The notes below the pieces were generated by a model. It saw only the letters and a program-made list of their open reading frames with translations, was not told the origin of the DNA and did not search any database. 64,000 nucleotides of DNA, taken from assembly GCF_030384885.1 (NCBI RefSeq), contig NZ_CP128613.1. One strand, 5' to 3'. Shown piece after piece: positions 16,886 to 56,718 of the stretch; the first letter of the stretch is position 1; each line of letters opens with the position of its first letter. The stretch comes from Escherichia coli. Its GTDB lineage: Bacteria; Pseudomonadota; Gammaproteobacteria; Enterobacterales; Enterobacteriaceae. The position numbers were made by a program, and so were the translations under genes.

Positions 16886-18047
<1,162 letters not shown>

Positions 18048-18048
<1 letters not shown>

Positions 18049-18905: not shown

Positions 18906-18918
18906 CGTGTTCTCTCCT

Positions 18919-20529: not shown

Positions 20530-20538
20530 CCTCGCTCC

Positions 20539-21714
<1,176 letters not shown>

Positions 21715-21742
21715 ATCATCCTCCACAAAATGATAAAGGCTT

Positions 21743-21761
21743 TAATAATGATTATCATTTA
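21743..21761. promoter_or_regulatory. Fur box in divergent entC / fepB promoter region
   Basis: aataatgattatcatttat closely matches the Fur consensus GATAATGATAATCATTATC. Confidence 0.6.
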
Positions 21762-21902
21762 TATTTTCGGTCGCTAACCTAAAAGCAAACGAGCACTATG
21801 TCAACTCTTGAGGTAACGCAATCTGCAAGTCGGGGTTGCATCTGCTTGTGGTTACAATGAAAATGAGAAGCATTAACTTCATTAATAACAGGAAGCTGAT
21901 TT

Positions 21903-22859
21903 GTGAGACTCGCCCCGCTCTACCGCAACGCCCTTCTTTTAACCGGAATTTTGCTTTCAGGAATATCCGCAGTTCAGGCTGCCGACTGGCCGCGTCAGAT
22001 TACTGACAGTCGTGGTACTCATACCCTGGAAAGCCAGCCGCAACGTATTGTTTCCACCAGCGTCACCTTGACCGGCTCACTGCTGGCGATTGATGCACCA
22101 GTGATCGCCAGCGGCGCGACCACGCCGAATAACCGCGTAGCGGATGACCAGGGTTTTTTACGCCAGTGGAGCAAGGTAGCGAAAGAACGCAAACTGCAAC
22201 GTCTCTATATCGGCGAACCGAACGCCGAAGCAGTAGCCGCACAAATGCCAGATCTGATTTTAATTAGCGCGACCGGCGGCGATTCAGCGCTGGCGCTATA
22301 CGATCAGCTTTCCACTATCGCACCAACGTTAATCATCAATTACGACGATAAAAGCTGGCAGTCGCTGTTAACGCAACTTGGCGAAATTACCGGGCATGAG
22401 AAACAAGCGGCAGAGCGGATTGCACAGTTTGATAAGCAACTGACGGCGGCGAAAGAGCAAATCAAATTACCGCCGCAGCCGGTCACTGCCATTGTCTATA
22501 CCGCCGCCGCGCACAGTGCCAATCTCTGGACAGCTGAATCAGCACAAGGGCAGATGCTGGAACAACTCGGCTTTACGCTGGCCAGGTTGCCCGCAGGCTT
22601 AAACGCCAGCCAAAGCCAGGGCAAACGCCATGACATCATTCAGCTTGGTGGGGAAAATCTGGCGGCAGGGTTAAATGGCGAGTCGCTATTCCTGTTCGCC
22701 GGTGATCAGAAAGACGCCGATGCGATTTATGCCAATCCACTGCTCGCGCACCTGCCTGCAGTACAAAACAAGCAGGTTTATGCGCTGGGAACCGAGACGT
22801 TCCGACTGGATTACTACAGCGCCATGCAAGTGCTGGATCGGCTTAAGGCGCTGTTCTAA
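21903..22859 (+). CDS. fepB: ferric enterobactin periplasmic binding protein
   Basis: 318-aa ORF recognised as FepB; apparent GTG start. Confidence 0.9.
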
Positions 22860-22862
22860 GCA

Positions 22863-24113
22863 TTAACTGTCAGACGCTGTCACCTGCGGCGGCGTCTGGC
22901 GAAAACGACGCAACTCCACCAGTACCAGCAACAACAACACGCCGATAATCAACAAACCAAAACCACTCGCGCTTGCGGAGGCCACCGGCGTCATCATCGC
23001 TCCCAGACCGCCCAACAGCGCTGCGCCTATAGCATCGCCCGTCACGTTTTGTGCCGTCCACAAACCGTTAATCCGCCCTAACATCGCTTCCGGGGTTTGC
23101 GTTTGCAGCATTGTGTATTGCAGCAACGAACTAACCGCGCTCAGCCAGCCGAACAGCGCCAGGCAAACCACGCCTAAAATCCACATCGGCATCAGGCCAA
23201 ACAAACCAATGGCGAGGAACGATCCCAGCGTGGAGAGCAGCATCAATAACCCTGGTCGCGCGCTATGTGCCAGCTTCCCGCTGGTTAACGCGCCAATAGC
23301 TGCACCGAGCGGGATCGCCGCATAGAGAAAACCAATCTGTGCCGCCGACATCTGCCAGTTGCCAGCCAGCGCCGGATACAGTACCCGTACCGCGCTCGCC
23401 ATCGTCAATAAACCACCCAGCAACGCAATCCCTCCCACCAGCGGGCTGGCAAGCAGAAAACGAAATCCTGCCAGTAATGATTTCAACGGATGCTCACGCG
23501 GTTGCGGTGGCGGAGGTAGCGCCGGAAGGCTTAACAATGGCAGCAAGGTAATAAACGTGCCCGCCGCCGCCAGCCCGTAGTTCCAGGCTACGCCGCCAGT
23601 CGCCAGCAGTAAGCCGCCAATCATGGGCGAAATTACCGATCCCAGCCGCACAGTCAACATGGTGATTGCCCCGGCCTGCATTAAATTTTCACGCCCAACT
23701 AATGCCGGAGTCGCCGCCAGCAGCGCCGTAACGCCAAGTGACGCGAAAAAGCCATCCCATAATCCGAGTAAATAGATTGCCAGCAAAGACGGCTCCGGCA
23801 GCAACGCGTTCAGGCACAGACCAATGAAGCCAATGCCACAGGTGCCGCGCGCCAGCAAAATCACTTTTTTGCGCTCATAGCGATCCGCCAGCACACCGCC
23901 GACCATCAAGCCGACAAACATCGCCCCGCCGGTCAGCGTCACCGAAAGCCCCACCTGCCAGGTAGAATGCGTCATCATCTGGATCTGCACTGGCACCGCG
24001 ACGCCGAGCAAACCCAGAGAAACAATAGAGATAAAACGAGCGAGGAATACTGCGCGAAACGCCGGGTGCGTTTTCAACAGGCTGAGGTTAAGCAGCCAGG
24101 ATTGTTTATTCAT
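22863..24113 (-). CDS. entS: enterobactin exporter (MFS)
   Basis: 416-aa MFS transporter recognised as EntS. Confidence 0.9.
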
Positions 24114-24186
24114 TACAATGCCTTGCCATCAAATATTTTAAATACCTATTCTTAGGCTGCACATGCTAACATATCCAAATAAGATC

Positions 24187-24213
24187 GATAACGATAATTA
24201 ATTTCATTATCAT
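24187..24213. promoter_or_regulatory. Fur box(es) in divergent entS / fepD promoter region
   Basis: gataacgataattaatttcattatc resembles overlapping Fur hexamer repeats. Confidence 0.55.
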
Positions 24214-24223
24214 GGAAGTTCGT

Positions 24224-25228
24224 ATGTCTGGTTCTGTTGCCGTGACACGCGCCATTGCCGTGCCCGGATTGCTGTTATTACTGATTATCGCGACGGCATT
24301 AAGCCTGCTCATTGGAGCAAAATCACTCCCCGCTTCCGTAGTGCTGGAGGCCCTCTCCGGCACCTGCCAGAGCGCCGACTGCACCATCGTGCTCGACGCG
24401 CGACTGCCGCGTACCCTTGCCGGTTTACTGGCAGGCGGCGCGCTTGGCCTTGCCGGGGCGTTAATGCAAACCCTCACCCGAAACCCACTTGCCGACCCCG
24501 GCTTGCTTGGCGTGAACGCCGGAGCCAGCTTTGCCATTGTGCTGGGCGCGGCGCTGTTTGGTTACTCATCCGCGCAGGAACAACTGGCGATGGCCTTCGC
24601 CGGGGCGCTGGTGGCCTCGTTGATTGTTGCCTTTACCGGCAGCCAGGGCGGCGGGCAGTTAAGTCCGGTGCGTTTAACCCTGGCGGGCGTGGCACTGGCG
24701 GCGGTGCTGGAAGGGCTGACCAGCGGCATCGCCCTGCTTAATCCCGACGTCTACGATCAACTGCGTTTCTGGCAAGCCGGTTCGCTGGATATTCGTAATT
24801 TACACACCTTAAAAGTGGTGCTGATCCCGGTGCTGATCGCCGGAGCAACTGCGCTATTACTGAGCCGCGCACTGAACAGTTTAAGCCTCGGCAGTGACAC
24901 CGCGACGGCGCTGGGCAGTCGCGTAGCACGCACGCAGTTGATTGGCCTACTGGCGATTACCGTGCTTTGTGGTAGTGCGACGGCGGTAGTTGGCCCGATT
25001 GCCTTTATTGGCCTGATGATGCCGCATATGGCGCGCTGGCTGGTAGGTGCCGATCATCGCTGGTCGCTGCCCGTCACGCTGCTCGCCACACCTGCCCTGC
25101 TGCTGTTTGCCGATATTATCGGGCGGGTGATTGTTCCCGGCGAACTGCGCGTTTCTGTAGTCAGTGCCTTTATTGGCGCACCAGTGCTGATCTTCCTTGT
25201 ACGACGTAAAACGCGAGGTGGCGCATGA
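24224..25228 (+). CDS. fepD: ferric enterobactin ABC transporter permease
   Basis: ORF recognised as FepD; start at MSGSVAVTRA (334 aa). Confidence 0.9.
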   Translation: MSGSVAVTRAIAVPGLLLLLIIATALSLLIGAKSLPASVVLEALSGTCQSADCTIVLDARLPRTLAGLLAGGALGLAGALMQTLTRNPLADPGLLGVNAGASFAIVLGAALFGYSSAQEQLAMAFAGALVASLIVAFTGSQGGGQLSPVRLTLAGVALAAVLEGLTSGIALLNPDVYDQLRFWQAGSLDIRNLHTLKVVLIPVLIAGATALLLSRALNSLSLGSDTATALGSRVARTQLIGLLAITVLCGSATAVVGPIAFIGLMMPHMARWLVGADHRWSLPVTLLATPALLLFADIIGRVIVPGELRVSVVSAFIGAPVLIFLVRRKTRGGA

Positions 25229-26217
25229 TTTACGTCTCTCGTCGATTAATTATCACCTGTCTGCTGTTGCTAATAGCTTGTGTGATGGCAAGCGTGTGGG
25301 GATTACGCAGCGGTGCCGTCACGCTGGAAACCTCTCAGGTATTTGCCGCGCTGATGGGTGACGCGCCGCGCAGTATGACAATGGTGGTCACCGAATGGCG
25401 TTTACCGCGGGTACTAATGGCACTGTTGATTGGTGCGGCACTGGGCGTCAGCGGCGCGATTTTTCAGTCGTTGATGCGTAACCCACTCGGCAGCCCTGAC
25501 GTAATGGGCTTTAACACCGGAGCGTGGAGCGGCGTGCTGGTGGCGATGGTGCTGTTTGGTCAGGACCTGACGGCTATCGCGCTGGCAGCAATGGCGGGCG
25601 GCATTATCACTTCGCTGCTGGTCTGGTTGCTTGCCTGGCGTAACGGTATCGACACCTTTCGGTTGATTATTATCGGCATCGGCGTTCGCGCCATGCTGGT
25701 GGCCTTTAATACCTGGCTGTTGCTGAAAGCGTCTTTAGAAACGGCGTTAACAGCGGGTTTGTGGAATGCCGGATCGCTCAATGGCCTGACGTGGGCAAAA
25801 ACCTCGCCCTCCGCGCCCATCATTATATTGATGCTAATTGCCGCCGCCTTACTGGTAAGGCGGATGCGCTTGCTGGAGATGGGTGATGACACCGCGTGTG
25901 CGTTAGGCGTCAGCGTCGAACGTTCACGGCTGTTAATGATGCTGGTGGCGGTGGTGCTTACCGCTGCAGCAACGGCCCTTGCCGGACCGATTTCCTTTAT
26001 TGCTTTAGTCGCGCCACACATTGCCCGCCGCATCAGCGGCACCGCTCGCTGGGGGCTAACCCAGGCGGCGCTGTGCGGTGCGCTGTTACTGCTGGCAGCC
26101 GATCTCTGTGCTCAGCAACTGTTTATGCCGTATCAACTTCCGGTTGGCGTCGTTACCGTCAGCCTCGGCGGTATTTACCTTATCGTCTTGTTAATTCAGG
26201 AGTCTCGCAAAAAATGA
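25225..26217 (+). CDS. fepG: ferric enterobactin ABC transporter permease
   Basis: 330-aa ORF recognised as FepG; ATGA overlap with fepD. Confidence 0.9.
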   Translation: MIYVSRRLIITCLLLLIACVMASVWGLRSGAVTLETSQVFAALMGDAPRSMTMVVTEWRLPRVLMALLIGAALGVSGAIFQSLMRNPLGSPDVMGFNTGAWSGVLVAMVLFGQDLTAIALAAMAGGIITSLLVWLLAWRNGIDTFRLIIIGIGVRAMLVAFNTWLLLKASLETALTAGLWNAGSLNGLTWAKTSPSAPIIILMLIAAALLVRRMRLLEMGDDTACALGVSVERSRLLMMLVAVVLTAAATALAGPISFIALVAPHIARRISGTARWGLTQAALCGALLLLAADLCAQQLFMPYQLPVGVVTVSLGGIYLIVLLIQESRKK

Positions 26218-36158: not shown

Positions 36159-36197
36159 TGCTAACGTCAGATTGTTGACAAAGTGCGCGTCGTTCAT

Positions 36198-36296
36198 GCC
36201 GGATGCGGCGTGAACGCCTTATCCGGCCTACAAAAATCTTGCCAATTCAATATATTGCAGGATAGTGTAGGCCTGATAAGCGTAGCGCATCAGGCA
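36198..36296. repeat. REP/BIME element: two inverted REP units in fepA–entD intergenic region
   Basis: gccggatgcggcgtgaacgccttatccggcctac and inverted gtaggcctgataagcgtagcgcatcaggc match canonical E. coli REP sequences. Confidence 0.8.
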
Positions 36297-36323: not shown

Positions 36324-36953
36324 ATGGTCGATATGAAAACTACGCATACCTCCCTCCCCTTTGCCGGACATACGCTGCATTTTGTTGAGTTCGATCCAGC
36401 AAGTTTTCACGAACAGGATTTACTCTGGCTGCCGCACTACGCTCAACTGCAACACACTGGACAGAAACGCAAAACAGAGCATTTAGCCGGACGGATCGCT
36501 GCTGTTTATGCCTTGCGGGAATGTGGCCTTAAATGTGTGCCCGCAATCGGCGATCTACGCCAACCTATGTGGCCTGCGGGGGTATTTGGCAGTATCAGCC
36601 ACTGCGGGACTACGGCATTGGCAGTGGTATCCCGTCAACCCATTGGCATTGATATCGAAGAGATTTTCTCTGTACAAACCGCAAGAGAATTGACAGACAA
36701 CATTATTACACCAGCAGAACACGAGCGACTCGCAGAATGCGGTTTAACCTTTTCTCTGGCGCTGACACTGGCATTTTCCGCCAAAGAGAGCGCATTTAAG
36801 GCAAGCAAGATACAGGCCGCTCAAGGTTTTCTGGATTATCAGATAATTAGCTGGAATAAACAGCAGATCATCATTCGACTAGAGGATGAGCAGTTTGCTG
36901 TGCACTGGCAGATAAAAGAAAAAATAGTCATAACGCTGTGCCAACACGATTAA
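36324..36953 (+). CDS. entD: 4'-phosphopantetheinyl transferase (enterobactin synthetase component D)
   Basis: ORF recognised as EntD; start placed at MVDMKTTHTSLPFAG; the upstream part of the 256-aa ORF covers the REP element; start uncertain by a few codons. Confidence 0.82.
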   Translation: MVDMKTTHTSLPFAGHTLHFVEFDPASFHEQDLLWLPHYAQLQHTGQKRKTEHLAGRIAAVYALRECGLKCVPAIGDLRQPMWPAGVFGSISHCGTTALAVVSRQPIGIDIEEIFSVQTARELTDNIITPAEHERLAECGLTFSLALTLAFSAKESAFKASKIQAAQGFLDYQIISWNKQQIIIRLEDEQFAVHWQIKEKIVITLCQHD

Positions 36954-37074
36954 TTGACAACATCTGGTACGATTCGCCCGCAGCCATCACTGACCACGGG
37001 CGAAAGTGTAAAGCAGGTGCCTTACCATCCTGACCTGACAACCGGATATGCGGGGATTACTCCCCGCACAACGG

Positions 37075-37227
37075 CTACTTCTTCGGTTCGTAAGCGAGAA
37101 CAGCCCTGAACTCAATATTACGTTCCTTTACGGTGAACTCACACAGCGAGTCGCCGACCAGAAGCGTAAATCCCAGCACTGTCAAACACAGCACTATGAC
37201 CGCCACAAGGGCATATTTCGTCAGCAT
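37075..37227 (-). CDS. Hok-family membrane toxin (copy 1)
   Basis: 50-aa [50 protein letters not shown]; ATG verified at 37225-37227 (cat on plus strand). Confidence 0.78.
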
Positions 37228-37576
37228 GTTTATATTGCCTCCATGCGAAGAAGGGACTACCATCCAAATTGTCTGGTTTGGAGTGGCGGCCCCAGGGTTG
37301 ATAGAAATATCTCCTGGGGCTTCATCTTTCCAGACCTCAGAGTTAACCTGAAACCGGAAAGCTTCAGGCACCCGCCGTTATCTTACCCTTCCTTAGCAAA
37401 ATGGCTGTTTATTTATACAGTAAATCCTGTTCCGGACTTTTCATTAGTATTATCGCCCATGCCAGTTAAACGAAATCGCCCGCAGCCATTGCTGACCGCG
37501 GGCGAAAATGTAAAGCAGGTGCCTTACCATCCTGACCTGACAACCGGATATGCGGGGATTACTCCCCGCACAACGG

Positions 37577-37729
37577 CTACTTCTTCGGTTCGTAAGCGAG
37601 AACAGCCCTGAACTCAATATTACGTTCCTTTACGGTGAACTCACACAGCGAGTCGCCGACCAGAAGCGTAAATCCCAGCACTGTCAAACACAGCACTATG
37701 ACCGCCACAAGGGCATATTTCGTCAGCAT
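37577..37729 (-). CDS. Hok-family membrane toxin (copy 2)
   Basis: identical 50-aa Hok sequence, one repeat period downstream of copy 1. Confidence 0.78.
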
Positions 37730-37874
37730 GTTTATATTGCCTCCATGCGAAGAAGGGACTACCATCCGAGTTGTTGAGGTTCGGAGTGGCAGCCCCAGGG
37801 TTGATAGAAATATCTCCTGGGGCTTCATCTTTCCAGACCTCAGAGTAAACCTGAAACCGGAAAGCTTCAGGCAC
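37641..37874 (-). CDS. mok-like overlapping reading frame (copy 2)
   Basis: 77-codon ORF overlapping the hok start in a different frame, as for mok in hok/sok loci. Confidence 0.45.
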
Positions 37875-38079
37875 CCGCCGTTATCTTACCCTTCCTTAGC
37901 AAAATAGCTGTTTATTTATACAGTAAATCCTGTTTCGGACTTCTGTTGGCAAAACTGATCATTGCCCTTAAAACGACATCGCCCGCAGCCATCACTGACC
38001 GCGGGCGAAAGTGTAAAGCAGATGCCTTACCATCCTGACCTGACAACCGGATATGCGGGGATTGCTCCCCGCACAACGG

Positions 38080-38232
38080 CTACTTCTTCGGTTCGTAAGC
38101 GAGAACAGCCTTAAACTCAATATTACGTTCCTTCACCGTAAACTCACACAGCGAGTCTCCGACCAGAAGCGTAAATCCCAGCACCGTCAAACACAGCACT
38201 ATGACTGCCACAAGGGCATATTTCGTCAGCAT
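38080..38232 (-). CDS. hokE: Hok-family membrane toxin (copy 3, ybdK-proximal)
   Basis: 50-aa Hok with ...[14 protein letters not shown]; occupies the hokE position next to ybdK. Confidence 0.82.
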
Positions 38233-38377
38233 GTTTATATTGCCTCCATGCGAAGAAGGGACTACCATCCAAATTGTTCGGGTTTGGAGTGGCAGCCCCA
38301 GGGTTGATAGAAATATCTCCTGGGGCTTCATCTTTCCAGTCCTCAGAGTAAACCTGAAACCGGAAAGCTTCAGGCAC
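38144..38377 (-). CDS. mok-like overlapping reading frame (copy 3)
   Basis: 77-codon ORF overlapping the hok start, paralogous to copy 2. Confidence 0.45.
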
Positions 38378-38673
38378 CCGCCGTTATCTTACCCTTCCTT
38401 AGCAAAATGGCTGTTTATTTATACAGTTGGTCTTATTTCGGACTTCTCACTACGCATTAGATCAACCGAAACTAAGCCAGTTTTTCCTTCGCCCCTCAAT
38501 CGTCAAAATTCTCCGCCGCCAGCCAGCTCTGCCATAACTTGGCACATTGCAAAAGTAGCCAAACTTCTTCAGTCACAATCAGTTCACCATCTCCAAAAAA
38601 AGAAATATTCCAGAACTTCCGCATCTCCCCCGGCCGCTCCCACTTCTATACTGAAATGAAAACGCCAACATAA

Positions 38674-39801
<1,128 letters not shown>

Positions 39802-39866
39802 GTCGGGAATTGCCTTACAGAAGAATATCCCTGACAATGGTGTTTTAACTTACATTTAACAATGTT

Positions 39867-40115
39867 ATGAAACACCCTTTAGAAACCTTAACCACCGCAG
39901 CAGGCATTTTGCTGATGGCTTTCCTCTCTTGCCTGCTGCTGCCCGCCCCCGCACTGGGACTGACGCTGGCACAAAAACTGGTGAACACGTTCCATCTGAT
40001 GGATCTTAGCCAGCTTTACACTTTATTGTTTTGCCTGTGGTTTTTAGTGCTGGGCGCAATTGAGTATTTTGTTCTGCGCTTTATCTGGCGACGCTGGTTC
40101 TCTGCGGCGGACTAA
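39867..40115 (+). CDS. ybdJ: small inner-membrane protein (DUF1158)
   Basis: 82-aa hydrophobic ORF recognised as YbdJ. Confidence 0.78.
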
Positions 40116-40179
40116 ACGTCGATTATCACCGTACTTCACGGCATACTTTGCTTATTCTCCTTCGCCTAAAGGAACGTTT

Positions 40180-40548
40180 ATGGATAAGCAATCACTGCAC
40201 GAAACGGCGAAACGCCTGGCCCTTGAGTTACCCTTTGTCGAGCTTTGCTGGCCTTTTGGCCCGGAGTTCGATGTCTTTAAAGTTGGCGGCAAGATTTTTA
40301 TGCTGTCGTCGGAGCTGCGCGGCGTCCCCTTTATCAATTTGAAGTCCGATCCACAAAAATCCCTGTTAAATCAGCAGATATACCCGAGCATTAAGCCAGG
40401 GTATCACATGAATAAGAAGCACTGGATTTCAGTGTATCCCGGCGAGGAAATCTCCGAAGCGTTACTTAGCGATCTGATCAACGATTCGTGGAATCTGGTG
40501 GTTGATGGCTTATCTAAACGCGATCAAAAAAGAGTGCGCCCAGACTAA
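40180..40548 (+). CDS. ybdF: DUF419/MmcQ-YjbR family protein
   Basis: ORF recognised as YbdF; start at [14 protein letters not shown] (122 aa). Confidence 0.8.
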
Positions 40549-40642
40549 AAGCGAAAATCTATAGCGCATTTTTCTCGCTTACCATTTCTCGTTGAACCTT
40601 GTAATCTGCTGGCACGCAAAATTACTTACACATGGAGTCTTT

Positions 40643-41296
40643 ATGGATATCATTTCTGTCGCCTTAAAGCGTCATTCCACTAAGGCATTTGATGCCAGCA
40701 AAAAACTTACCCCGGAACAGGCCGAGCAGATCAAAACGCTGCTGCAGTACAGCCCATCCAGCACCAACTCCCAGCCGTGGCATTTTATTGTTGCCAGCAC
40801 GGAAGAAGGCAAAGCGCGTGTTGCCAAATCCGCTGCCGATAATTACGTGTTCAACGAGCGCAAAATGCTTGATGCCTCGCACGTCGTGGTGTTCTGCGCG
40901 AAAACCGCGATGGACGATGCCTGGCTGAAACAGGTTGTTGACCAGGAAGATGCCGATGGCCGCTTTGCCACGCAGGAAGCGAAAGCCGCGAACGATAAAG
41001 GTCGCAAATTCTTCGCCGATATGCACCGTAAAGATCTGCAAGATGATGCTGAGTGGATGGCAAAACAGGTTTACCTCAACGTCGGTAACTTCCTGCTGGG
41101 CGTTGCGGCGCTGGGTCTGGACGCGGTACCCATCGAAGGTTTTGACGCCGCAATCCTCGATGAAGAATTCGGTTTGAAAGAGAAAGGCTACACCAGCCTG
41201 GTGGTGGTTCCAGTGGGCCATCATAGCGTAGAGGATTTTAACGCGACTCTGCCGAAATCTCGTCTGCCGCAAAGTATCACCTTAACCGAAGTGTAA
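40643..41296 (+). CDS. nfsB: oxygen-insensitive NAD(P)H nitroreductase
   Basis: ORF recognised as NfsB; start at [17 protein letters not shown] (217 aa) with GGAG RBS. Confidence 0.92.
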
Positions 41297-41355
41297 TTCT
41301 CCTTTGCCGGGCATCCGCCCGGCTATTTCCCCTCAGATTATCCTGATTTGCATAA

Positions 41356-42651
<1,296 letters not shown>

Positions 42652-42653
42652 TT

Positions 42654-42690
42654 AAAAAACCGCTCTCATCGAATGGATGAGAGCGGTTTA
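42654..42690. terminator. bidirectional intrinsic terminator between convergent mscM and pheP
   Basis: A-run, 11-bp stem ccgctctcatc / gatgagagcgg with 5-nt loop, then T-rich. Confidence 0.6.
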
Positions 42691-42730
42691 GGATGGTTGA
42701 CATCGTTTTGTCGGATGTAGCGTGAACGCC

Positions 42731-44107
42731 TTATTTCCGACGCAGCGTTTTAAACGCCACAAACAGGAATACAATCCACACCGGCAGCAAAATTGCCGAC
42801 AAGCGCATATCATCCAACGTGCACATCAGCAGCAAAATCATGCCGAGGAAGGCAATGCAGAGATAGTTGCCGAACGGATAGAGCAGCGCTTTAAACTGTG
42901 TTTCTCGCCCCTGACGTCGCATCGCCGCGCGAAAACGCAGATGCGCCAGACAGATCATAATCCAGTTCAACAGCAGCGTTGCCACCACCAGCGCCATCAG
43001 CAGACCAAACGCTTTTTGCGGCAGCAGATAGTTGATCAGCACCACCAGCGAAGTGATAGCCCCAGAAAGCATCAGCGAGTTAATCGGCACGCCGCGACGG
43101 CTGACGCGAGTCAAAAACTTCGGCGCATTACCCTGCACAGAAAGGCCAAACAGCATGCGGCTGTTGGAATAAACCCCACTGTTATAGACCGACAACGATG
43201 CCACCAGAATGACGAAGTTCAGCGCAGAAGCCACCACATTGCTGTCAAGATTATGGAAAATCATCACAAACGGGCTACTGTTAGATTTCACTTCCACCCA
43301 CGGATAGAGCGCCAGTAAAACCACCAGTGAACCGATATAAAACAGCAGGATGCGATAAACCACCTGATTTACCGCTTTTGGAATACTTTTTTCCGGATCG
43401 CGCGCTTCAGCGGCAGTAATCCCAATCAGCTCCAGCCCGCCGAAGGAAAACATGATCACCGCCAGGGACAAAATCAGCCCATTCCAGCCCGTGGCGAAGA
43501 AACCACCGTAGCGCCAGAGGTTGTCGATACTGGCTTTCTCACCGCCGTGACCAGAAAACAGCAGCCACAGGCCAAAGCCGATCATACCGATGATCGCCAA
43601 CACTTTAATCAGCGCAAACCAGAACTCAGTTTCGCCATATAAGCGCACGTTCACCAGGTTAACAGCATTGATGATAATAAAGAAGGCGGCAGCCCAGATC
43701 CACGTTGGAACATCCGGGAACCAGTACTGCATATAGATGCCCGCAGCGGTCAGCTCAGCCATCCCCACCAGTACGAACATCACCCAGTAGTTCCAGCCTG
43801 AGAGGAAGCCCGCAAACGGTCCCCAGTATTTATAGGCAAAGTGGGCAAACGAACCGGATACCGGCTCCTCAACCACCATCTCGCCAAGCTGGCGCATAAT
43901 CAGGAAAGCAATGATCCCGGCGACGCCGTAGCCCAACAATACAGCCGGACCTGCCATCTGAATCGCCGGGCCAATGCCAAGAAACAGACCAGTACCAATA
44001 GCGCCACCCAGCGCAATCAGTTGAATATGACGGTTATGTAATCCGCGATGAAGCGTCGGCTCTTTATTCGACGCAGTATCTTCCGATACGGTTGACGCGT
44101 TTTTCAC
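42731..44107 (-). CDS. pheP: phenylalanine-specific permease (APC family)
   Basis: ORF recognised as PheP; start placed at (V/M)KNASTVSEDTAS (458 aa, GTG); an alternative upstream ATG lies at 44143. Confidence 0.9.
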   Translation of the reverse strand: MKNASTVSEDTASNKEPTLHRGLHNRHIQLIALGGAIGTGLFLGIGPAIQMAGPAVLLGYGVAGIIAFLIMRQLGEMVVEEPVSGSFAHFAYKYWGPFAGFLSGWNYWVMFVLVGMAELTAAGIYMQYWFPDVPTWIWAAAFFIIINAVNLVNVRLYGETEFWFALIKVLAIIGMIGFGLWLLFSGHGGEKASIDNLWRYGGFFATGWNGLILSLAVIMFSFGGLELIGITAAEARDPEKSIPKAVNQVVYRILLFYIGSLVVLLALYPWVEVKSNSSPFVMIFHNLDSNVVASALNFVILVASLSVYNSGVYSNSRMLFGLSVQGNAPKFLTRVSRRGVPINSLMLSGAITSLVVLINYLLPQKAFGLLMALVVATLLLNWIMICLAHLRFRAAMRRQGRETQFKALLYPFGNYLCIAFLGMILLLMCTLDDMRLSAILLPVWIVFLFVAFKTLRRK

Positions 44108-44208
44108 GCCTTTCCCCTGTGTGTCTTTTTTGTTGAGGGGCACCTTTTAACATTTAGTGCCCATCGTCGCAAGACACAATCCACGCGGTTAAACCGGGTA
44201 TCCTGCTT

Positions 44209-47200
44209 TTATTTCCGTACCCGATGTCGGTGCAGCCACATCAGCTTATACGCCGCCGGGATAATAAACAGCGACAGCAAAGGTGCGGTGATCATGCCGC
44301 CAATCATCGGCGCGGCAATCCGGCTCATCACCTCTGAACCTGCCCCCGTTCCCCACAAAATCGGCAGCAGACCCGCGATAATCACCGCCACCGTCATCGC
44401 TTTCGGGCGCACGCGCAGTACCGCGCCGTGATATAACGCTTCATCCAGCTTCTGCTCGCTGAATGTTTGCGGGTTATCCAGGGATGGCTCTGCCTCTATG
44501 GCGTGACGTAAATACATCAGCATCACCACGCCAAATTCGGCGGCGACTCCCGCGAGGGCGATAAAGCCAGTGCCCGTTGCCACGGAAAGATGAAAGCCCA
44601 TCCACCACAGCAACCAGATGCCGCCCACCAGCGCAAACGGTACGCTGCTGATAATCAGCAACGCTTCGCCCACGCGACGGAACGCCAGATACAACAGCAC
44701 GAAGATGATCATCAACGTCATCGGCACCATGAGTTTCAGCTTATGGTTGGCGCGCTCCAGTAGCTCGAACTGCCCGGAGAATGCCACGCTGGTGCCCGGT
44801 TTTAACTGCACTTTCTCGGCAATCGCTTTTTGCAAATCGTGAACCACCGACACCATGTCACGATCGCGGGCATCGATATAAATCCAGCTCGTCGGGCGCG
44901 CATTCTCGGTTTTCAGCATCGACGGTCCAGTGGAGACTTTAACGTCGGCCACATCCGCCAGGGTGATTTGCTGCTTCATCGGCGTCAGGATCGGTAGCTG
45001 GCGCAGCGCCTGTGGGCTATCGCGCCAGCTTTGCGGATAACGCAGATTAATTGGATAACGGGCAATCCCTTCCACCGTTTCACCAACCATCGCCCCGCCC
45101 ACCGCAGATGTCACAAACAACTGCACATCCGCCACCGTCATACCGTAACGGGCGGCTTTTTCACGGTTGATCTCAACGTTGATATAGCGCCCACCTTCCA
45201 GACGTTCAGCAAGGGCTGAAGCCACGCCTGGCACCGTTCGCGCCACTTCTTCAATTTGCTCCGCCATCGCGTCGATATCCGCCAGCACAGTGCCGGAAAC
45301 TTTAATGCCGATGGGGCTTTTAATGCCAGTCGAGAGCATATCGATACGGTTACGGATTGGCGGCACCCACAGATTCGCCAGCCCCGGCAGACGCACGGTG
45401 TTGTCCAGTTCCTCAATGATTTTGTCCATCGTCATGCCTGGCCGCCACTGATCCTGTGGCTTAAGCTGAATGGTCGTTTCTACCATCTCCAGCGGAGCAG
45501 AATCGGTGGCGGTTTCCGCTTTCCCGGTTTTGCCAAACACCCGCGCCACTTCCGGCACGCTCATAATCAGCTTGTCGGTTTTTTGCAGCATACTCGCCGC
45601 CTCTGCTGCGGAAATCCCCGGCAGCGTCGATGGCATATACAACAAGTCGCCTTCATTGATCTGCGGTAAAAATTCTCCGCCAACTTTATTGAGCGGCCAG
45701 AGAACCGTCAGTACCGAAAGCGCCGCCACCAACAGCGTGGTTTTAGGCCAGTGCAGTACTTTCAGCAACAGCGGATGATAAACACGAATCAAAAAGCGAT
45801 TGAGCGGATTACTGCTTTCTGGTGGAATTTTGCCACGGATCCAGTAGCCCATCAGGATGGGGATCACTACGATCGCCAGCAGCGCCGCGCCCGCCATCGC
45901 ATACGTTTTGGTGAACGCCAGCGGGCCAAACAGACGCCCTTCCTGCCCTTCCAGGGTGAAGATCGGGATAAACGACAGCGTGATAATCAGCAGACTGATA
46001 AACAGCGCTGGCCCCACTTCAACAGATGCATCGGTGATCACCTGCCAGCGCGTTTTATTATCCAGCGTGGCGTCAGGATGCTGGTGCTGCCACTCTTCCA
46101 GCCGTTTATGCGCATTCTCGATCATGACGATAGCGGCATCGACCATCGCCCCGACGGCAATCGCAATACCGCCCAGCGACATAATATTGGCATTCAGCCC
46201 CTGGAAGTGCATGATAATAAAAGCAATACACAACCCCAGCGGCAACGAAATAATCGCCACCAGTGCCGAGCGCACATGCCAGAGAAACAGCGCGCAGACA
46301 ACCGCCACCACAATAAACTCTTCCAGCAACTTGCTGCTGAGGTTGTCGATGGCGCGGTCAATGAGCTGGCTGCGATCGTATGTTGTAACTATCTCCACGC
46401 CTTCCGGCAGACTGCTTTTCAGCGTTTCCAGTTTGTCCTTCACGGCGGCGATCACTTCACGGGCGTTTTTGCCGGAGCGCAGGATCACCACCCCGCCCGC
46501 CACTTCGCCTTCACCATTGAGTTCGGCAATGCCCCGGCGCATCTCCGGGCCAATCTGGACCTTCGCAACATCACGCAGATAAACGGGCACGCCATTTTCG
46601 CTGGCTTTTAAAACGATGTGATTAAAGTCGTCGAGCGTTTGCAGATAGCCGCTGGCGCGCACCATATATTCCGCTTCCGCCAGTTCGATCGACGAACCGC
46701 CCGCTTCCTGGTTTGAAGCATCCAGCGCATTTTTCACTTCGGCGAGACTGATGCCATACTGCGCCAGGCGCTGAGGATCGATAACCACCTGATACTCTTT
46801 CACCACACCGCCCACCGACGCCACTTCCGCAACGTCAGGGATGGTTTTCAGCTCATATTTGAGAAACCAGTCCTGCAATGAACGTAAATCGGCCAGATCG
46901 TGCTTACCGCTGCGATCCACCAGCGCGTATTCATAGATCCAGCCAACACCCGTGGCATCTGGCCCCAACTCGGCGCTGACTCCCGCAGGCAGCTTACCCT
47001 GTACCTGGTTGAGGTACTCCAGCACCCGCGAGCGCGCCCAGTACGGATCGGTGCCATCTTCGAAAATGACATATACATAAGAGTCGCCAAACTGCGAGAA
47101 ACCGCGCACAGTCTTCGCGCCAGGTACTGACAACATGGTGGTGGTTAGTGGATAAGTCAACTGATTTTCAACGATTTGCGGTGCCTGACCGGGATAGCTG

Positions 47201-47352
47201 GTTTTAATAATCACCTGCACATCGGAGAGATCCGGCAGCGCATCCACTGGCGTGTTAATGATAGTCCAGGTGCCCCAGATACTCAGAAACAACGCGCCGA
47301 TCAGCACCAGAAAACGGTTCGCCACCGAGCGACGAATAATCCATTCAATCAT
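44209..47352 (-). CDS. cusA: Cu(I)/Ag(I) efflux RND transporter
   Basis: 1047-aa RND pump recognised as CusA. Confidence 0.95.
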
Positions 47353-47363
47353 TGGTTATTCCC

Positions 47364-48587
47364 TCAATGCGCATGGGTAGCACTTTCAGAGCGCATCCGC
47401 TCCAGTGCGCCAGAAATATTGGCTTCAGAATCAATCAGGAACAGGCCGCTGGAAACCACCTTTTCACCTTCCGCCAGACCAGAACGTAGCGCGGTGACGC
47501 CTTGCGACGCCTGGAAAACAGCAACGCGTTTCGGTACAAAGCGCCCGTCGGCATCAACGGTAATCACCCGCTGTTCGTTACCAGTATCAATCAGTGCCTG
47601 TGACGGAATGAGCAGCATCGGTTCGCTGGCGGTGTTGAGTTGCAACCAGGCGTTCATTCCCGGTTTTAGCGCCTCGTCGGCGTTGTCGACTTCCAGACGC
47701 AGTTGTAGCGTGCGGGTCGCGGCATCCACGCCAGGTAGCAGCGTCCATTTGCGGATGGTGAGTGTTTTATCCGGTCGTGCCGGAACGGTGAGCGTAAACT
47801 GCGAGGCATCTTTCACCAGCCAGGCGATGGACTCCGGGATCGCTGCAGTGACCCACACCGGGTCCATACCCTGAATTTTCGCGACCACGTTATCTTTGGC
47901 GATATTCATTCCCGCACGCAGATCAAACGCGGTGATCACGCCATCAATGGGCGCTTTGAGCGTAAAGCGAGTCTGGATTTTTTGCGTGGCGATCAGGCGG
48001 CGAATATCCGCCTCCGGCATTCCCGCCAGCCGCAGGCGTTCAAGAATGCCTTCAGTCTGGGTCGCCGTACCGCCGGTTTCGCGCAGCAGTAAATACTCAC
48101 TCTGCGCTTCCACCCAGTCGGGAATGGTCAGGTCGAGAAGCGGTGTGCCCTTTTGCACTTTATCGCCCACGGTGAGCGGATACACCTTGTCGATAAACCC
48201 GGCGGCGCGGGCCTGCACAATGGCAAACTGATACTCGTTGTAACTGACATTCGCTGGGAAACTCTGGGCAAAAGTCAGCGGCCCGCGCGTGACGGTCGCC
48301 GTTTTCACCCCCAGATTTTGCGTCTGGGTCGGGTCAATGCGCACACCAGACGCAGAACTCTCTTCATCGGCATATTTCGGCACCAGATCCATATCCATAA
48401 ACGGCGATTTACCTGGTTTATCGAACCGCGTATTGGGATACATCGGGTCGTACCAGAATAATATTTTACGTTCTGCGGTCGGCGTTTTTTCTGCGGGCGG
48501 TTCAGCCTTTGCAAACCAGGTAAAACCTGCCGCAGAAATAATACCGCCCGCGATCATGCTGCCGATAATAAGCGCGATTTTTTTCAT
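47364..48587 (-). CDS. cusB: Cu(I)/Ag(I) efflux membrane fusion protein
   Basis: 407-aa ORF recognised as CusB. Confidence 0.93.
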   Translation of the reverse strand: MKKIALIIGSMIAGGIISAAGFTWFAKAEPPAEKTPTAERKILFWYDPMYPNTRFDKPGKSPFMDMDLVPKYADEESSASGVRIDPTQTQNLGVKTATVTRGPLTFAQSFPANVSYNEYQFAIVQARAAGFIDKVYPLTVGDKVQKGTPLLDLTIPDWVEAQSEYLLLRETGGTATQTEGILERLRLAGMPEADIRRLIATQKIQTRFTLKAPIDGVITAFDLRAGMNIAKDNVVAKIQGMDPVWVTAAIPESIAWLVKDASQFTLTVPARPDKTLTIRKWTLLPGVDAATRTLQLRLEVDNADEALKPGMNAWLQLNTASEPMLLIPSQALIDTGNEQRVITVDADGRFVPKRVAVFQASQGVTALRSGLAEGEKVVSSGLFLIDSEANISGALERMRSESATHAH

Positions 48588-48602
48588 CTCATTAAACCTG
48601 GG

Positions 48603-48935
48603 TTACTGGCTGACTTTAATATCCTGTAATAAAGAAAGGTTGCCCTGCTGGACAAAATTAAACGCTACTTTGTCGCCAGTTTTAATTTCACTCATTTTCG
48701 TCTGCGGGGTGATGGTAAAGCGCATGGTCATCTCCGGCCAGTTCACGGCGGCAATCGGATCGTGGTGGATGGTGATTTTTTTGCTTTCCAGATCAATAGT
48801 TTTTACCACACCGGTGGCGCTAATGACCTGTGGTTGTGCCTCGCTCATGGTTTCATGATGATGTTCGTTAGCCTGGGCATTAAAGCCAATAACAGTAAAC
48901 AGACTGAACATTGCGACTTGCAGTGCTTTTTTCAT
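48603..48935 (-). CDS. cusF: periplasmic Cu(I)/Ag(I) metallochaperone
   Basis: 110-aa ORF with signal peptide and His/Met-rich segment; recognised as CusF. Confidence 0.92.
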   Translation of the reverse strand: MKKALQVAMFSLFTVIGFNAQANEHHHETMSEAQPQVISATGVVKTIDLESKKITIHHDPIAAVNWPEMTMRFTITPQTKMSEIKTGDKVAFNFVQQGNLSLLQDIKVSQ

Positions 48936-48958
48936 TTATTCTCTCCTGAAGTTAAAAA

Positions 48959-50341
48959 TTATTGCTGCCAACCGCCCCCTAAGGCGGTATATAAAGAAAT
49001 TTCGTTAACCTGACGGGCATAATTCAGGTCGAGTAAAGTTTGTCGGGTTGCAAATAAGGAACGCTCGGCATCCAGCACTTCCAGATAACTTACCGCGCCG
49101 TGCTGATATAATGCCCGCGCCCGTTGCAACGTAATTTGCAGCGACGCCAGATAACGCTGCTGGGCGCTGATTTGATCGTTCAGGCTTTGACGTAATGCCA
49201 GCGCATCTGCCACTTCTTTAAAGGCGTTCTGAATTTTCTGTTCATAATTCACCACCGACTGCTGCTGGCGAATTTCGGCGATATCCAGATTGGCCTGGTT
49301 GCGTCCGGCATTAAAAATGGGGATCTGAATTTTGGGAATAAAATTCCACATCCCGCTGCTGGCGTTAAATAATGATGACAGATCGCTGCTGGCGGTTGAT
49401 ATTCCACTGGTCAGGCTTATAGACGGGAAAAATGCCGCACGCGCAGCACCAATATTGGCATTGGCCGCCATTAACGCGTGTTCAGCTTCCATAATATCCG
49501 GGCGCTGCAATAAGATTTGCGACGACAAGCCCGCCGGTAATTTAACGCTTTGCAGGCTGTCGCTGTTTACTGTCTGCGCTTGCGGCAGCTTGCCGTAGTT
49601 TCCCAATAACAGTTGCAATGCATTATTCGCCTGCGCCAGTTCCCCCTGACGTTTAGCGATATCACTGCGGGTACTTTCTATCACCCCGCGAGCCTGTTCC
49701 AGCGCCAGAACATTGCTGCTACCGGTCAACAGTTGTTTTTCAACAAACGCATATGACTGCTGATAATTACGCAGCGTTTCTTCGGCTATTTGTAATTGCG
49801 CATAAGCCAGTTGCTGATTGAAATAGCTTTGCGCGACATTAGAAACTAGCAGAATATGCACCGCGCGCTGAGCTTCCTCAGTGGCTAAATAATTTTGTCG
49901 CTCGGCTTCGCTCATGTTCTTTAAGCGACCGAAAAAATCGAGATCAAAGCTGGCGTTAAGGCCAGTCGAGAACTCCCGCGTCGTGGCTGAATCGCCTTTA
50001 AGATTGCCGCTCCAGCTGCCGCTACCCTCGCCATTGAGCTGCGGGTAGCGGTCGGCATCGGTCAGACGATATTGCGCCCGTGCCTCCTGCACTTTCAGTG
50101 TCGCCATGCGCAAATCCCGGTTATTCACCAGCGCCTCGCTAATCAGCGTCTTCACCTGATTATCAACAAAAAAGGTGCGCCAGCCCGCGTTCTGGTAGTT
50201 ATCTACCGCGTTAACCAGGCCGTTCTGGCTGAGTGAGAACTGCTGCGGCACGGGCATTGCCGGACGCTGATAATCCGGTGCCAGTGAACAACCGGTTAGC
50301 GCAAGGGCCACACAAAATGGCAGAAGTTTACAAGGAGACAT
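48959..50341 (-). CDS. cusC: Cu(I)/Ag(I) efflux outer membrane factor (lipoprotein)
   Basis: ORF recognised as CusC; start at MSPCKLLPFCVALALTGC lipobox; the ORF-track start at 50347 is a GTG two codons upstream. Confidence 0.9.
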   Translation of the reverse strand: MSPCKLLPFCVALALTGCSLAPDYQRPAMPVPQQFSLSQNGLVNAVDNYQNAGWRTFFVDNQVKTLISEALVNNRDLRMATLKVQEARAQYRLTDADRYPQLNGEGSGSWSGNLKGDSATTREFSTGLNASFDLDFFGRLKNMSEAERQNYLATEEAQRAVHILLVSNVAQSYFNQQLAYAQLQIAEETLRNYQQSYAFVEKQLLTGSSNVLALEQARGVIESTRSDIAKRQGELAQANNALQLLLGNYGKLPQAQTVNSDSLQSVKLPAGLSSQILLQRPDIMEAEHALMAANANIGAARAAFFPSISLTSGISTASSDLSSLFNASSGMWNFIPKIQIPIFNAGRNQANLDIAEIRQQQSVVNYEQKIQNAFKEVADALALRQSLNDQISAQQRYLASLQITLQRARALYQHGAVSYLEVLDAERSLFATRQTLLDLNYARQVNEISLYTALGGGWQQ

Positions 50342-50410
50342 AGGCACATAATTTCTGGTGATTTTATGCCGCCAACTTTACACGCCAGGCTCTGATTTTC
50401 CGGTGACAGG

Positions 50411-50432
50411 AAAATGACAAAATTGTCATTTT
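50411..50432. promoter_or_regulatory. CusR-box-like palindrome in divergent cusC / cusR promoter region
   Basis: aaaatgacaaaattgtcatttt is a perfect palindrome of the AAAATGACAA..TTGTCATTTT type. Confidence 0.6.
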
Positions 50433-50497
50433 GCCAATAAGCGATTGCCATCTGATCCCGCTACTCTAGAATTGCCCGGGCAACATGCGGAGGAAAT

Positions 50498-51181
50498 ATG
50501 AAACTGTTGATTGTCGAAGATGAAAAGAAAACCGGCGAATACTTAACCAAAGGGTTAACCGAGGCCGGTTTTGTGGTTGATTTGGCCGATAACGGGCTGA
50601 ATGGATATCATCTGGCGATGACAGGTGATTATGACCTGATAATCCTCGATATTATGCTGCCGGACGTGAACGGCTGGGATATTGTGCGCATGTTGCGTTC
50701 CGCCAATAAAGGGATGCCGATTCTGTTGCTTACCGCGCTTGGCACCATTGAACATCGCGTCAAGGGGCTGGAGCTGGGAGCGGATGACTATCTGGTGAAG
50801 CCGTTCGCTTTTGCTGAACTGCTGGCACGGGTGCGCACTCTACTGCGGCGCGGGGCGGCGGTAATTATCGAAAGTCAGTTTCAGGTTGCCGATTTAATAG
50901 TTGATCTGGTCAGCCGCAAAGTCACCCGCAGCGGCACGCGCATCACTTTGACCAGTAAAGAATTTACTCTGCTGGAGTTTTTCCTCCGCCATCAGGGTGA
51001 AGTGCTGCCCCGCTCGCTTATCGCCTCGCAGGTGTGGGACATGAATTTCGACAGCGACACTAACGCTATTGATGTGGCGGTGAAGCGGCTACGCGGCAAA
51101 ATCGACAATGATTTCGAGCCAAAGTTAATTCAGACCGTACGCGGCGTAGGTTACATGCTTGAGGTGCCGGATGGCCAGTAA
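50498..51181 (+). CDS. cusR: copper-responsive two-component response regulator (OmpR family)
   Basis: 227-aa ORF recognised as CusR; GGAGGA RBS. Confidence 0.93.
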
Positions 51182-52619
51182 GCCGTTTCAGCGCCCGTTT
51201 TCGCTGGCAACCCGCCTGACCTTTTTTATCAGCCTTGCCACCATTGCAGCGTTTTTCGTCTTTGCCTGGATCATGATCCACTCGGTAAAAGTGCATTTTG
51301 CCGAGCAGGATATTAATGATTTAAAAGAGATTAGCGCCACATTCAGGCGTGTTCTTAATCATCCCGAAGAGACACAAGCCCGACGCTTAATGACGCTGGA
51401 AGATATCGTCAGTGGTTATTCCAACGTGTTGATTTCTCTGGCAGATAGCCACGGTAAAACGGTGTATCACTCCCCCGGTGCGCCGGATATCCGCGAGTTT
51501 GCACGTGATGCCATACCCGATAAAGACGCTCGGGGCGGCAAGGTGTATCTCCTTTCCGGCCCGACAATGATGATGCCAGGCCACGGTCACGGGCATATGG
51601 AACACAGCAACTGGCGGATGATTAACTTGCCGGTTGGCCCGTTGGTGGACGGCAAACCGATTTATACGCTCTACATCGCGCTGTCTATCGATTTTCATCT
51701 TCATTACATTAATGATTTGATGAATAAACTTATTATGACCGCATCGATCATCAGCATCCTGATCGTCTTTATCATGCTGTTGGCGGTACATAAAGGCCAC
51801 GCGCCAATTCGCAGCGTCAGCCGTCAAATCCAGAACATTACCTCGAAAGATCTCGACGTTCGCCTTGACCCGCAGACCGTGCCGATTGAGCTGGAACAGC
51901 TGGTACTGTCGTTCAACCATATGATCGAGCGTATTGAGGATGTCTTTACCCGCCAGTCCAATTTCTCAGCGGATATCGCTCACGAAATTCGTACGCCAAT
52001 TACGAATCTCATTACGCAAACGGAAATCGCCCTCAGCCAGTCGCGCAGCCAGAAGGAGCTGGAAGATGTGCTCTACTCTAATCTCGAAGAGCTGACGCGA
52101 ATGGCGAAAATGGTCAGCGATATGCTGTTTCTCGCTCAGGCCGATAACAACCAGTTAATCCCCGAAAAGAAAATGCTCAACCTGGCGGATGAAGTTGGCA
52201 AAGTGTTCGATTTTTTCGAGGCGTTAGCGGAAGATCGCGGCGTAGCACTACGGTTTGTTGGCGACAAATGTCAGGTTGCGGGCGATCCGCTGATGCTGCG
52301 TCGGGCGCTAAGCAACCTGCTTTCTAACGCTCTGCGTTATACGCCGCCCGGAGAGGCAATTGTAGTGCGCTGCCAGACGGTCGATCACCAGGTGCAAGTT
52401 ACCGTCGAAAACCCCGGTACGCCCATTGCGCCCGAGCATTTACCGCGTTTGTTTGACCGTTTCTACCGCGTTGATCCTTCCCGCCAGCGAAAAGGTGAAG
52501 GTAGCGGCATTGGGCTGGCGATAGTGAAATCGATTGTTGTCGCGCATAAAGGCACGGTTGCAGTAACGTCAGATGCGCGGGGAACAAGGTTTATGATCAA
52601 ACTACCGGAGAAAGGTTAA
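51171..52619 (+). CDS. cusS: copper-sensing two-component histidine kinase
   Basis: ORF recognised as CusS; start placed at ATG 51171 ([10 protein letters not shown]), overlapping cusR end; the ORF-track start at 51159 is TTG. Confidence 0.88.
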
Positions 52620-53283
52620 TTAGTTAGTTCAAACTCAAAGAGTGATGTATCGCCTTCTGTTATTATTTATCAATAAAACAGGGAAGACCTTATTGGTCGT
52701 CTGAAATCGACGGTTATTCATTTTCGGATATTTACGAGATATTTAGATATGCAATTTAATCAAATTCGTGTTTCTACCAATTGTAGAGCACAATGCTATT
52801 ACTAAATTTTCATCACTATAAAAGAATCGGCTATAATATAAAGCGCAGTCAGGCATCATTAATCTCTATATTATTCACACAATCTATTTATCAAGTGAAT
52901 TTGATAAATTCCTAATTTAAAATATTCACTATTAAGCCAGCGTCTAACGACGTTAAGATGGCAATGTGCAGATCATGTTATCAGGGTGGGGCGGTAGCGT
53001 ATATTCCTTATACAAACCATCATTCATTTCAATAATGTTTATTGAGTTATTTATTATTGTGAATAAAAAGACATTACAAATATTGGTTTGACTTTGCATA
53101 TCAGGTGTTTTTTTTGTTACTCGATGTAATATACGAGCCTGTCCTTAATAACATCGTGAACCCGTCAGTTGAGTTTGTGATTATTTTGTTGAGTCAACAG
53201 CCCCCTGTTTCTCTGAAGTAAAATCCCGGACAAAATCATCACATAACCATGACACTTTTCTGATATTCCCCGGTAACGCCTGA

Positions 53284-54534
53284 AGCCTGCCCGCTTACCT
53301 GAAGGCGCAGTCTGCGGGCAGGCACCGGATAAGTGAAGAGACTGACCAGTATGCCGGAGGCCACCGGCTGAAACAGGCCGGAAACACGCAGTATGACTAT
53401 GACGCCGCAGGCCGGATGGTCAGCCGCACCAGGCACCGTGACGGCTACCGCCCGGAAACAGAGCGGTTCCGGTGGGACAGCCGGGACCAGCTGACCGGGT
53501 ATTGCAGCGCACTGGGGGTGCAGTGGGAATACCGCCACGACGCCAGCGGCAGACGGACGGAAAAACGCTGCGACCGGAAGAAAATCCGTTTTACGTACCT
53601 GTGGGACGGCGACAGTATTGCGGAAATGCGGGAATACCGGGATGATAAACTGTACAGCGTACGGCACCTGGTGTTTAACGGCTTTGAGCTGCTGAGTCAG
53701 CAGTTCAGCCGGGAAAGGCAGCCGCATCCGTCCGTGGCCCCGCAGTGGGTGACGCGGACGAGCCATGCGGTAAGCGACCTGACAGGCCGCCCGGTGATGC
53801 TCTTTAACAGTGAAGGTAAAACCGTCTGGCGGCCGGGACAGACCAGCCTGTGGGGGCTGGCACTCAGCCTGCCCGCAGACACCGGCTACCCGGACCCGCG
53901 CGGGGAACTGGACCCGGAAGCCGACCCCGGCCTGCTGTATGCAGGACAGTGGCAGGATGCAGAATCCGGGCTGTGCTATAACCGGTTCCGGTACTACGAG
54001 CCGGAAACCGGGATGTACCTGGTGAGTGACCCCCTGGGGCTGGCCGGGGGGGAGCAGACTTACCGGTATGTGCCTAATCCATGTGGGTATGTTGATCCTT
54101 TGGGATTAGCAACGTGTCCCATAATCAGACAGCGGGTGCTTGCTAACCTCGAAGCCAGTCGGGCAGCAAGAGTTACATCAAATTTTGGTAAGCCTCTGGT
54201 TCAGGGAAATAAAACGATTGGCGATAAAGTAAGGGATATAATTGCCAAAGAGAGGGGAACCACTCTAATTGAACAAAATTATAGAGTGACAGGAGGATTA
54301 AGGCGTATTGACGTTGTTGATGGAGTAACGGGTATTGAATCTAAAGTCGGTCGAACAGGGATAACTGCCCGAGTACGGCAAGAGGTAGCCCGTGATATTA
54401 AGATTTTGAGAAGTGGGCAACTTGATCAAATTGAATGGGTGTTTACAAGAAGTCCAACTACAGGGAAGATTGGGCCAACTAAACCACTTGAAGATCTGTT
54501 AAATAAACATGGTATACCGATTATTTATCGATAA
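53284..54534 (+). pseudogene. 5'-truncated Rhs remnant: ~275 aa of Rhs core C-terminus plus a ~141-aa polymorphic C-terminal toxin domain (orphan rhs-CT)
   Basis: open frame from 53284 with YD-repeat-like residues and the terminal DPxGL(x)nDPLGL motif; C-terminal domain begins at 54109 where GC content drops; first ATG at 53416; the >1000-aa N-terminal part of a full Rhs is absent. Confidence 0.7.
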
Positions 54535-56715: not shown

Positions 56716-56718
56716 CCG

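Follow-up and report, generated by a model that had tools for sequence, protein, structure and literature searches.

Organization of the entD-ybdK interval

The DNA considered here is a stretch of 64,000 nucleotides from Escherichia coli (the window), in which the genes fes (-), fepA (+, ending at 36158) and entD (+), three tandem repeat units and the gene ybdK (+) follow each other in this order (Table 1). The entD gene closes with a TAA stop codon at 36951-36953, and the spacer that separates it from the first repeat unit, TTGACAACATCTGGTACGAT, is the same in K-12 and, according to the alignment, nearly the same in other Escherichia species. Homology among the three units of approximately 503 bp begins at 36974, as found by repeat search and by MAFFT alignment. 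On the other side of entD, a cluster of REP-like palindromes is located in the gap towards fepA (36160-36290), and one of these palindromes (36233-36274) reaches the Rfam gathering score for the ES036 (CssrF) sRNA. This match probably represents a repeat element and not a dedicated sRNA gene.

Table 1. Coordinates of the features of the entD-ybdK interval, given as positions in the window.
Feature	Position	Strand	Basis or remark
entD (phosphopantetheinyl transferase) CDS	36333-36953	+	ORF list; PGAP of near-identical genome; Pfam 4PPT_N and ACPS
Spacer, entD stop to first hok unit	36954-36973		20 bp, unique sequence; interval flagged in the earlier note
hokE/sokE unit 1	36974-37475	-	502 bp; repeat families D1/D2; alignment; Rfam sok at 37219-37373
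Predicted fbi element, unit 1	37014-37022	-	pairs with predicted mRNA 5′ end, 37366-37374
Unoccupied IS186 target GGGGATTACTCCCC, unit 1	37052-37065		hairpin just 3′ of hok stop; K-12 junctions and alignment
hok CDS, unit 1	37075-37227	-	50 aa plus stop; Pfam HOK_GEF
sokE-equivalent antisense RNA region, unit 1	37275-37329	+	55 of 60 nt aligned to K-12 sokE, 98%
hokE/sokE unit 2	37476-37978	-	503 bp; repeats, Rfam, alignment
Predicted fbi element, unit 2	37516-37524	-	pairs with 37869-37877
GGGG(N6)CCCC motif, unit 2 equivalent	37554-37567		unoccupied
hok CDS, unit 2	37577-37729	-	protein same as unit 1
sokE-equivalent region, unit 2	37778-37832	+	alignment to NC_000913.3 sokE
hokE/sokE unit 3	37979-38452	-	repeats, Rfam, alignment
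Predicted fbi element, unit 3	38019-38027	-	pairs with 38372-38380; one G-U pair
GGGG(N6)CCCC motif, unit 3 equivalent GGGGATTGCTCCCC	38057-38070		unoccupied
hok CDS, unit 3	38080-38232	-	R replaced by K at one residue compared with the other two units
sokE-equivalent region, unit 3	38276-38335	+	60/60 identical to K-12 sokE
ybdK, conserved right-hand flank of hok array	38683-39801	+	ORF list; PGAP

The units are spaced by 502 and 503 bp from start to start, and they are 91-94% identical to one another (6-9% difference in the alignment). Tandem Repeats Finder returned no repeat at the hok array, because the longest period it considers is 500 and the units measure 502-503 bp. In regard to their content, all three hok ORFs were annotated as hokE by PGAP in a near-identical genome, with Pfam PF01848 (HOK_GEF) scores of 33-34 bits for units 1 and 3 (cut-off 22), and a full-length match to Rfam RF01794 (sok) was found in each unit at 82-87 bits (gathering score 59). 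The sok regions of the three units share 98-100% identity with the annotated sokE of K-12. The recognition of HOK_GEF and sok in the units supports the identity of the locus as hokE/sokE, a type I toxin-antitoxin system located on the chromosome. PGAP of the near-identical genome additionally placed pseudogenes labelled "hypothetical protein, frameshifted" opposite hok, across the sok/mok region (approximately 37196-37470 and 38201-38460, both on the + strand), and they seem to be artefacts that the highly structured hok leader produces in annotation.

The units differ in some details of their organization. In units 2 and 3, a mok-like ORF (MKPQEIF...) located upstream of hok is in frame with it. 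This ORF is out of the hok frame in unit 1 and ends there about 30 nt short of the hok start, due to a 1-nt deletion near 37274 (37270-37276) in comparison with units 2 and 3 and with K-12, and the same deletion is located at the 5′ end of the sokE-equivalent region of this unit. Unit 1 may be differently regulated, or it may be defective. At the other end of the units, the terminal hairpin of unit 1 (36974-37003) has no T-run, while terminator-like hairpins are located at 37476-37505 in unit 2, with a T-run, and at 37979-38008 in unit 3. A simple sigma-70 consensus scan of 36900-38700 returned no promoter-like site, so the consensus lends no confirmation to the hok and sok promoters.

The IS186 insertion of K-12 and its unoccupied counterpart

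According to the earlier note, K-12 carries a copy of IS186 between entD and hokE. This copy is IS186B (insL2, b0582; PGAP label "IS421 family"), IS186 being a member of the IS4 family, and in NC_000913.3 it is annotated at 608007-609351, between hokE at 607836-607988 and entD at 609459-610079. A resequenced MG1655 carries IS186 here just as the reference does, and a transposase CDS of 1,113 nt lies between entD and hokE in K-12. Both ends of the element were found in K-12 (positions 2465 and 3781 of the extracted locus) and in the strain RM9513, and the junction sequences give a length of 1,339 bp from one inverted repeat to the other in K-12.

In the window, the 23-bp terminal inverted repeat of IS186, CATAAGCGCTAACTTAAGGGTTG, and its 17-bp core both gave zero matches on both strands over the whole 64 kb. 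The ORF list holds no ORF longer than 100 aa in 36954-37075, and thus no InsL transposase gene in this segment. Alignment with the K-12 entD-ybdK interval led to the same result, with IS186 present in K-12 and none in the window, where entD is followed by the first hok unit after 20 bp, just as had been read from the letters alone.

The position of the insertion is nevertheless different from the one first supposed. IS186 does lie between entD and hokE, but not in the flagged spacer, as its site is found about 100 bp beyond, at 37052-37065. In K-12, entD likewise reaches the hok tail within 20 bp, and the first 90 bp or so of this tail, like the spacer, match the window exactly, with 110 bp separating IS186 from the entD stop and 21 bp separating it from the hokE stop. 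Since the spacer and the tail of approximately 90 bp are unchanged, the K-12 element is located inside the hok locus, in its 3′ UTR, and not between entD and the locus. The element has GGGGATTACTCC at one flank and GGATTACTCCCC at the other, with about 10 bp of the target duplicated; the duplicated segment, GGATTACTCC, corresponds to window positions 37054-37063 and is present on both sides of IS186 in K-12. In the window no such duplication was found, and GGGGATTACTCCCC occurs in one copy, at 37052-37065. When IS186 and one copy of the target are taken out of the K-12 sequence, its alignment to unit 1 runs across the junction without gaps. The single K-12 unit is closest to unit 1 at the entD end and, from the hok reading frame upstream, to unit 3, which is expected when a single unit is compared with a tandem array.

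The hot spots of IS186 reportedly follow the consensus GGGG(N6/N7)CCCC, attributed to SaiSree et al. in 2001. The target GGGGATTACTCCCC fits this consensus. IS186 has entered the GGGG(N6)CCCC hairpin in K-12 and in about a third of sequenced E. coli, approximately 10-20 bp past the hokE stop and 100-110 bp from entD, duplicating about 10 bp upon insertion. In this way, the hok reading frame would be parted from the 3′ fold-back-inhibition (fbi) element and from the terminator of the mRNA, a separation that is the classic account of the crippled K-12 hokE, with the functional effect taken from the literature.

The predicted structure of the transcripts is consistent with this account. For each unit, the presumed full-length hok mRNA was folded with ends that we infer by analogy with hok of plasmid R1, from which the position of the 5′ end was set. 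The nine nucleotides at the 5′ end of the mRNA are predicted, in each of the three minimum-energy folds, to pair with AGGCACCUG or AGGCAUCUG, approximately 50 nt from the 3′ end. In unit 1, the same 9-bp pairing between the 5′ and 3′ ends is also present in the centroid structure, and the fold has a z-score of -6.0 against shuffled sequences, which are much less stable. The predicted pairing would represent the long-range tac/fbi pairing characteristic of hok mRNAs. The IS186 target lies between the predicted fbi elements and the hok reading frame, so hokE of K-12 would be detached from both fbi and the terminal hairpin; in the folding, a K-12 transcript running into IS186 loses its fbi partner. 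In each unit of the window, the hok ORF, the sok region, the predicted 5′/3′ pairing and the terminal hairpin are unbroken, and the hokE locus of this strain can, judging by its sequence, be considered structurally complete in all three units.

Distribution of junction types and ancestral state

The frequency of the uninterrupted junction was inspected in 5,426 complete E. coli genomes by means of junction queries anchored in entD. The junction was uninterrupted in 2,899 of them, IS186 was present in the K-12 orientation in 1,648 and, at the same site but reversed (e.g., RM9513), in 225, while 629 genomes held an islet of approximately 11 kb exactly at the boundary between entD and the hok unit. 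These four configurations account for 5,401 of the 5,426 genomes (99.5%), and IS186 in either orientation for 1,873, about a third (approximately 35%), although such percentages are not population frequencies, because laboratory and clinical lineages are strongly over-represented in the collection. The occurrence of both orientations points to at least two independent insertions of IS186 into one hairpin. Furthermore, with 629 genomes holding the islet, the entD/hok boundary, and with it the flagged 20-bp interval, is itself variable in the pan-genome. BL21 and ATCC 8739 also carry IS186 here and, as shown by the 1,873 genomes occupied by it, the element at this site is not a marker of K-12. 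Its absence rules out K-12, while its presence would not have identified K-12.

In a systematic sample of E. coli genomes, one unit was found in roughly 55-60% and two units in 40%. Collinear arrays of three units were present in at least six genomes among the best 60 of the ranked complete-genome matches. The latter count comes from collinear matches in a single piece; counts of the inter-unit junction queries at 80% coverage were set aside, because non-collinear pieces within approximately 565 bp were joined and the two junctions have diverged.

Outgroups were sought among species-representative genomes by a scan with one exact 24-mer, which returned five Escherichia loci and misses species with an altered hokE word, possibly including E. 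fergusonii and E. marmotae. In E. albertii, which has one unit, entD is followed by the same 20-bp spacer and the hok tail. The succession of entD, spacer and hok tail is also found in E. whittamii (two units), in Escherichia sp. E1V33 (one unit) and in a divergent E. coli representative (two units), and IS186 is absent at the site in all four. In E. albertii, the site reads GGAGATGACTCCCC and does not have the GGGG(N6)CCCC form. The fifth locus, that of Escherichia sp. MOD1-EC7003, holds the islet. The IS-free adjacency of entD and hok is the ancestral one, since E. albertii, E. whittamii and Escherichia sp. E1V33 have it as well. The earlier note had considered the hok array to be in an uninterrupted and probably ancestral context, and both properties of the context hold. 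The ancestral state does not extend to the array itself: the three-unit array is rare and derived, as the outgroups hold one or two units.

Closest relative of the source genome

The closest match of the window is E. coli 2013C-4282, isolated from human stool in the USA, with 99.97% identity over 16.4 kb. Window 36867-53297 differs from it by 5 mismatches in these 16.4 kb, and the entD-hok-ybdK interval by one SNP in 2.65 kb, at 37906. A segment of 8.9 kb with vgrG, DcrB-like and rhs genes, present in NZ_CP027579.1 (positions 16432-25378 of the extract), is missing in the window at 53296-53297; this difference is probably a deletion or a rearrangement between Rhs repeats. Exact identity of the window with 2013C-4282 was rejected, given the 5 SNPs in 16.4 kb and the 8.9-kb vgrG-rhs difference. 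Further along the window, in the regions 56642-58459 (-) and 58544-59295, group II intron domains recognized by Rfam (D1-D4 and the catalytic domain) bracket an ltrA-type reverse transcriptase gene that is annotated likewise in 2013C-4282. An ISAs1-like segment adjoins it, and K-12 has no equivalent at this position. The earlier reading that the source is not a K-12 derivative is borne out by an identity to K-12 of approximately 94% in the entD-ybdK interval and by three hok units against one, and the source is a wild-type, non-K-12 E. coli closely related to 2013C-4282.

Origin of the uninterrupted junction

Taking all this into consideration, the flagged interval is almost certainly the ordinary 20-bp junction between entD and the 3′ end of hokE/sokE, in a non-K-12 strain in which IS186 never inserted here. 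An empty site could alternatively be secondary, if IS186 had once been present and had later been removed through precise excision or replaced when the locus recombined with an empty allele. Such a history would fit a site that is a recurrent target of IS186 in both orientations, in a species in which recombination between lineages is common and at an array whose three units are mosaics differing by 6-9%. However, the target is present in the window once and cleanly, without a scar, E. albertii, E. whittamii and Escherichia sp. E1V33 have the unoccupied site and the spacer as well, and most E. coli genomes are in the empty state (2,899/5,426), so that a secondary loss is very unlikely.

It is also conceivable that a repeated IS was collapsed or skipped during assembly, as IS elements and tandem repeats of 503 bp are typical places of mis-assembly. 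This explanation is highly improbable in view of the closed genome of 2013C-4282, where this structure recurs with a single SNP over 2.65 kb, of five other complete genomes with collinear three-unit arrays among the best 60 matches, and of the uninterrupted junction in the further 2,899 complete genomes. IS-free derivatives of K-12 exist, and an engineered strain of this kind, from which IS186B was removed, would also present an empty site; yet the identity to K-12 is only about 94%, there are three hok units and not one, and the group II intron and Rhs/ISAs1 sequences of the window are arranged as in 2013C-4282, which leaves a practically negligible probability for such an origin. A further and rather doubtful proposal can be made, that the hokE hairpin is a recurrent IS186 trap in which selection for uncoupling hok from its 3′ control, and not target preference alone, could be at work, or, conversely, that the rare intact three-unit arrays could be functional expansions of an active locus.

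Relation to known hok loci

K-12 MG1655 (NC_000913.3, 607733-610079) and the window have in common the ybdK and entD flanks, the 20-bp spacer, the hok 3′ tail and the hok/sok architecture. They differ in the number of units, one against three, and in IS186B, which in K-12 is located in the 3′ UTR at the equivalent of 37052-37065. K-12 has a second hok locus of this kind, hokC (gef), where IS186 is also located just downstream of the reading frame, although hokC is at another chromosomal site and encodes another Hok paralogue than the locus of the window. The fbi element of hokC/gef is presumed to be disrupted by this downstream copy of IS186 (PMC3562002). With hokC/gef as the second K-12 case, hok 3′ ends are shown to be preferred targets of IS186.

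Likewise, tandem copies of hokE approximately 500 bp apart and without IS were described in NRG857c (hok-2.1/2.2), E. coli W and O157:H7 (PMC7232551; PMC3032704), and "Hok islets" of 2-6 homologues arising via local duplication are described in a recent preprint (bioRxiv 10.1101/2025.08.07.668861). Compared with these duplicated hokE loci, where most genomes have one or two units, the window has three. The hok/sok system of plasmid R1 resembles the window locus in its Hok/Gef toxin of approximately 50 aa, the antisense Sok RNA, the tac/fbi pairing (predicted here) and the terminal hairpin. On the other hand, the locus of the window is on the chromosome and has little similarity to R1 in primary sequence, and units 2 and 3 have the mok-like ORF in the frame of hok.

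An uninterrupted locus is not equivalent to an active one, since chromosomal hok loci, even when structurally intact, are reported not to mediate post-segregational killing, according to the same preprint (bioRxiv 10.1101/2025.08.07.668861). The empty IS186 site beside entD is an already documented and ordinary state in most E. coli, and as such it is known biology with little importance beyond bookkeeping. The tally of the four states describes a small hypervariable spot, and it extends, without overturning, the 1999 description of IS-inactivated hok loci in K-12. A structurally complete hokE locus could be of use in work on chromosomal hok/sok, because the K-12 copy is broken by IS186.

Variants of the junction in other genomes

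In RM9513 (2646-3983 of the extracted locus), IS186 is located in the same hokE hairpin, in the orientation opposite to that of K-12, and the target copies flanking it differ by one base (GGATTGCTCC and GGATTACTCC). This mismatch may be the result of IS-mediated or unit-to-unit recombination after the insertion. An IS150 is also located just upstream of this hokE. The islet at the entD/hok boundary is a sugar-utilisation islet, seen in EcPF18 and in Escherichia sp. MOD1-EC7003 at the equivalent of window position 36973/36974. It holds genes for transketolase subunits, a sugar-binding regulator, an FGGY kinase, a ribose-type ABC transporter, a DUF2291 protein and two SDR oxidoreductases.
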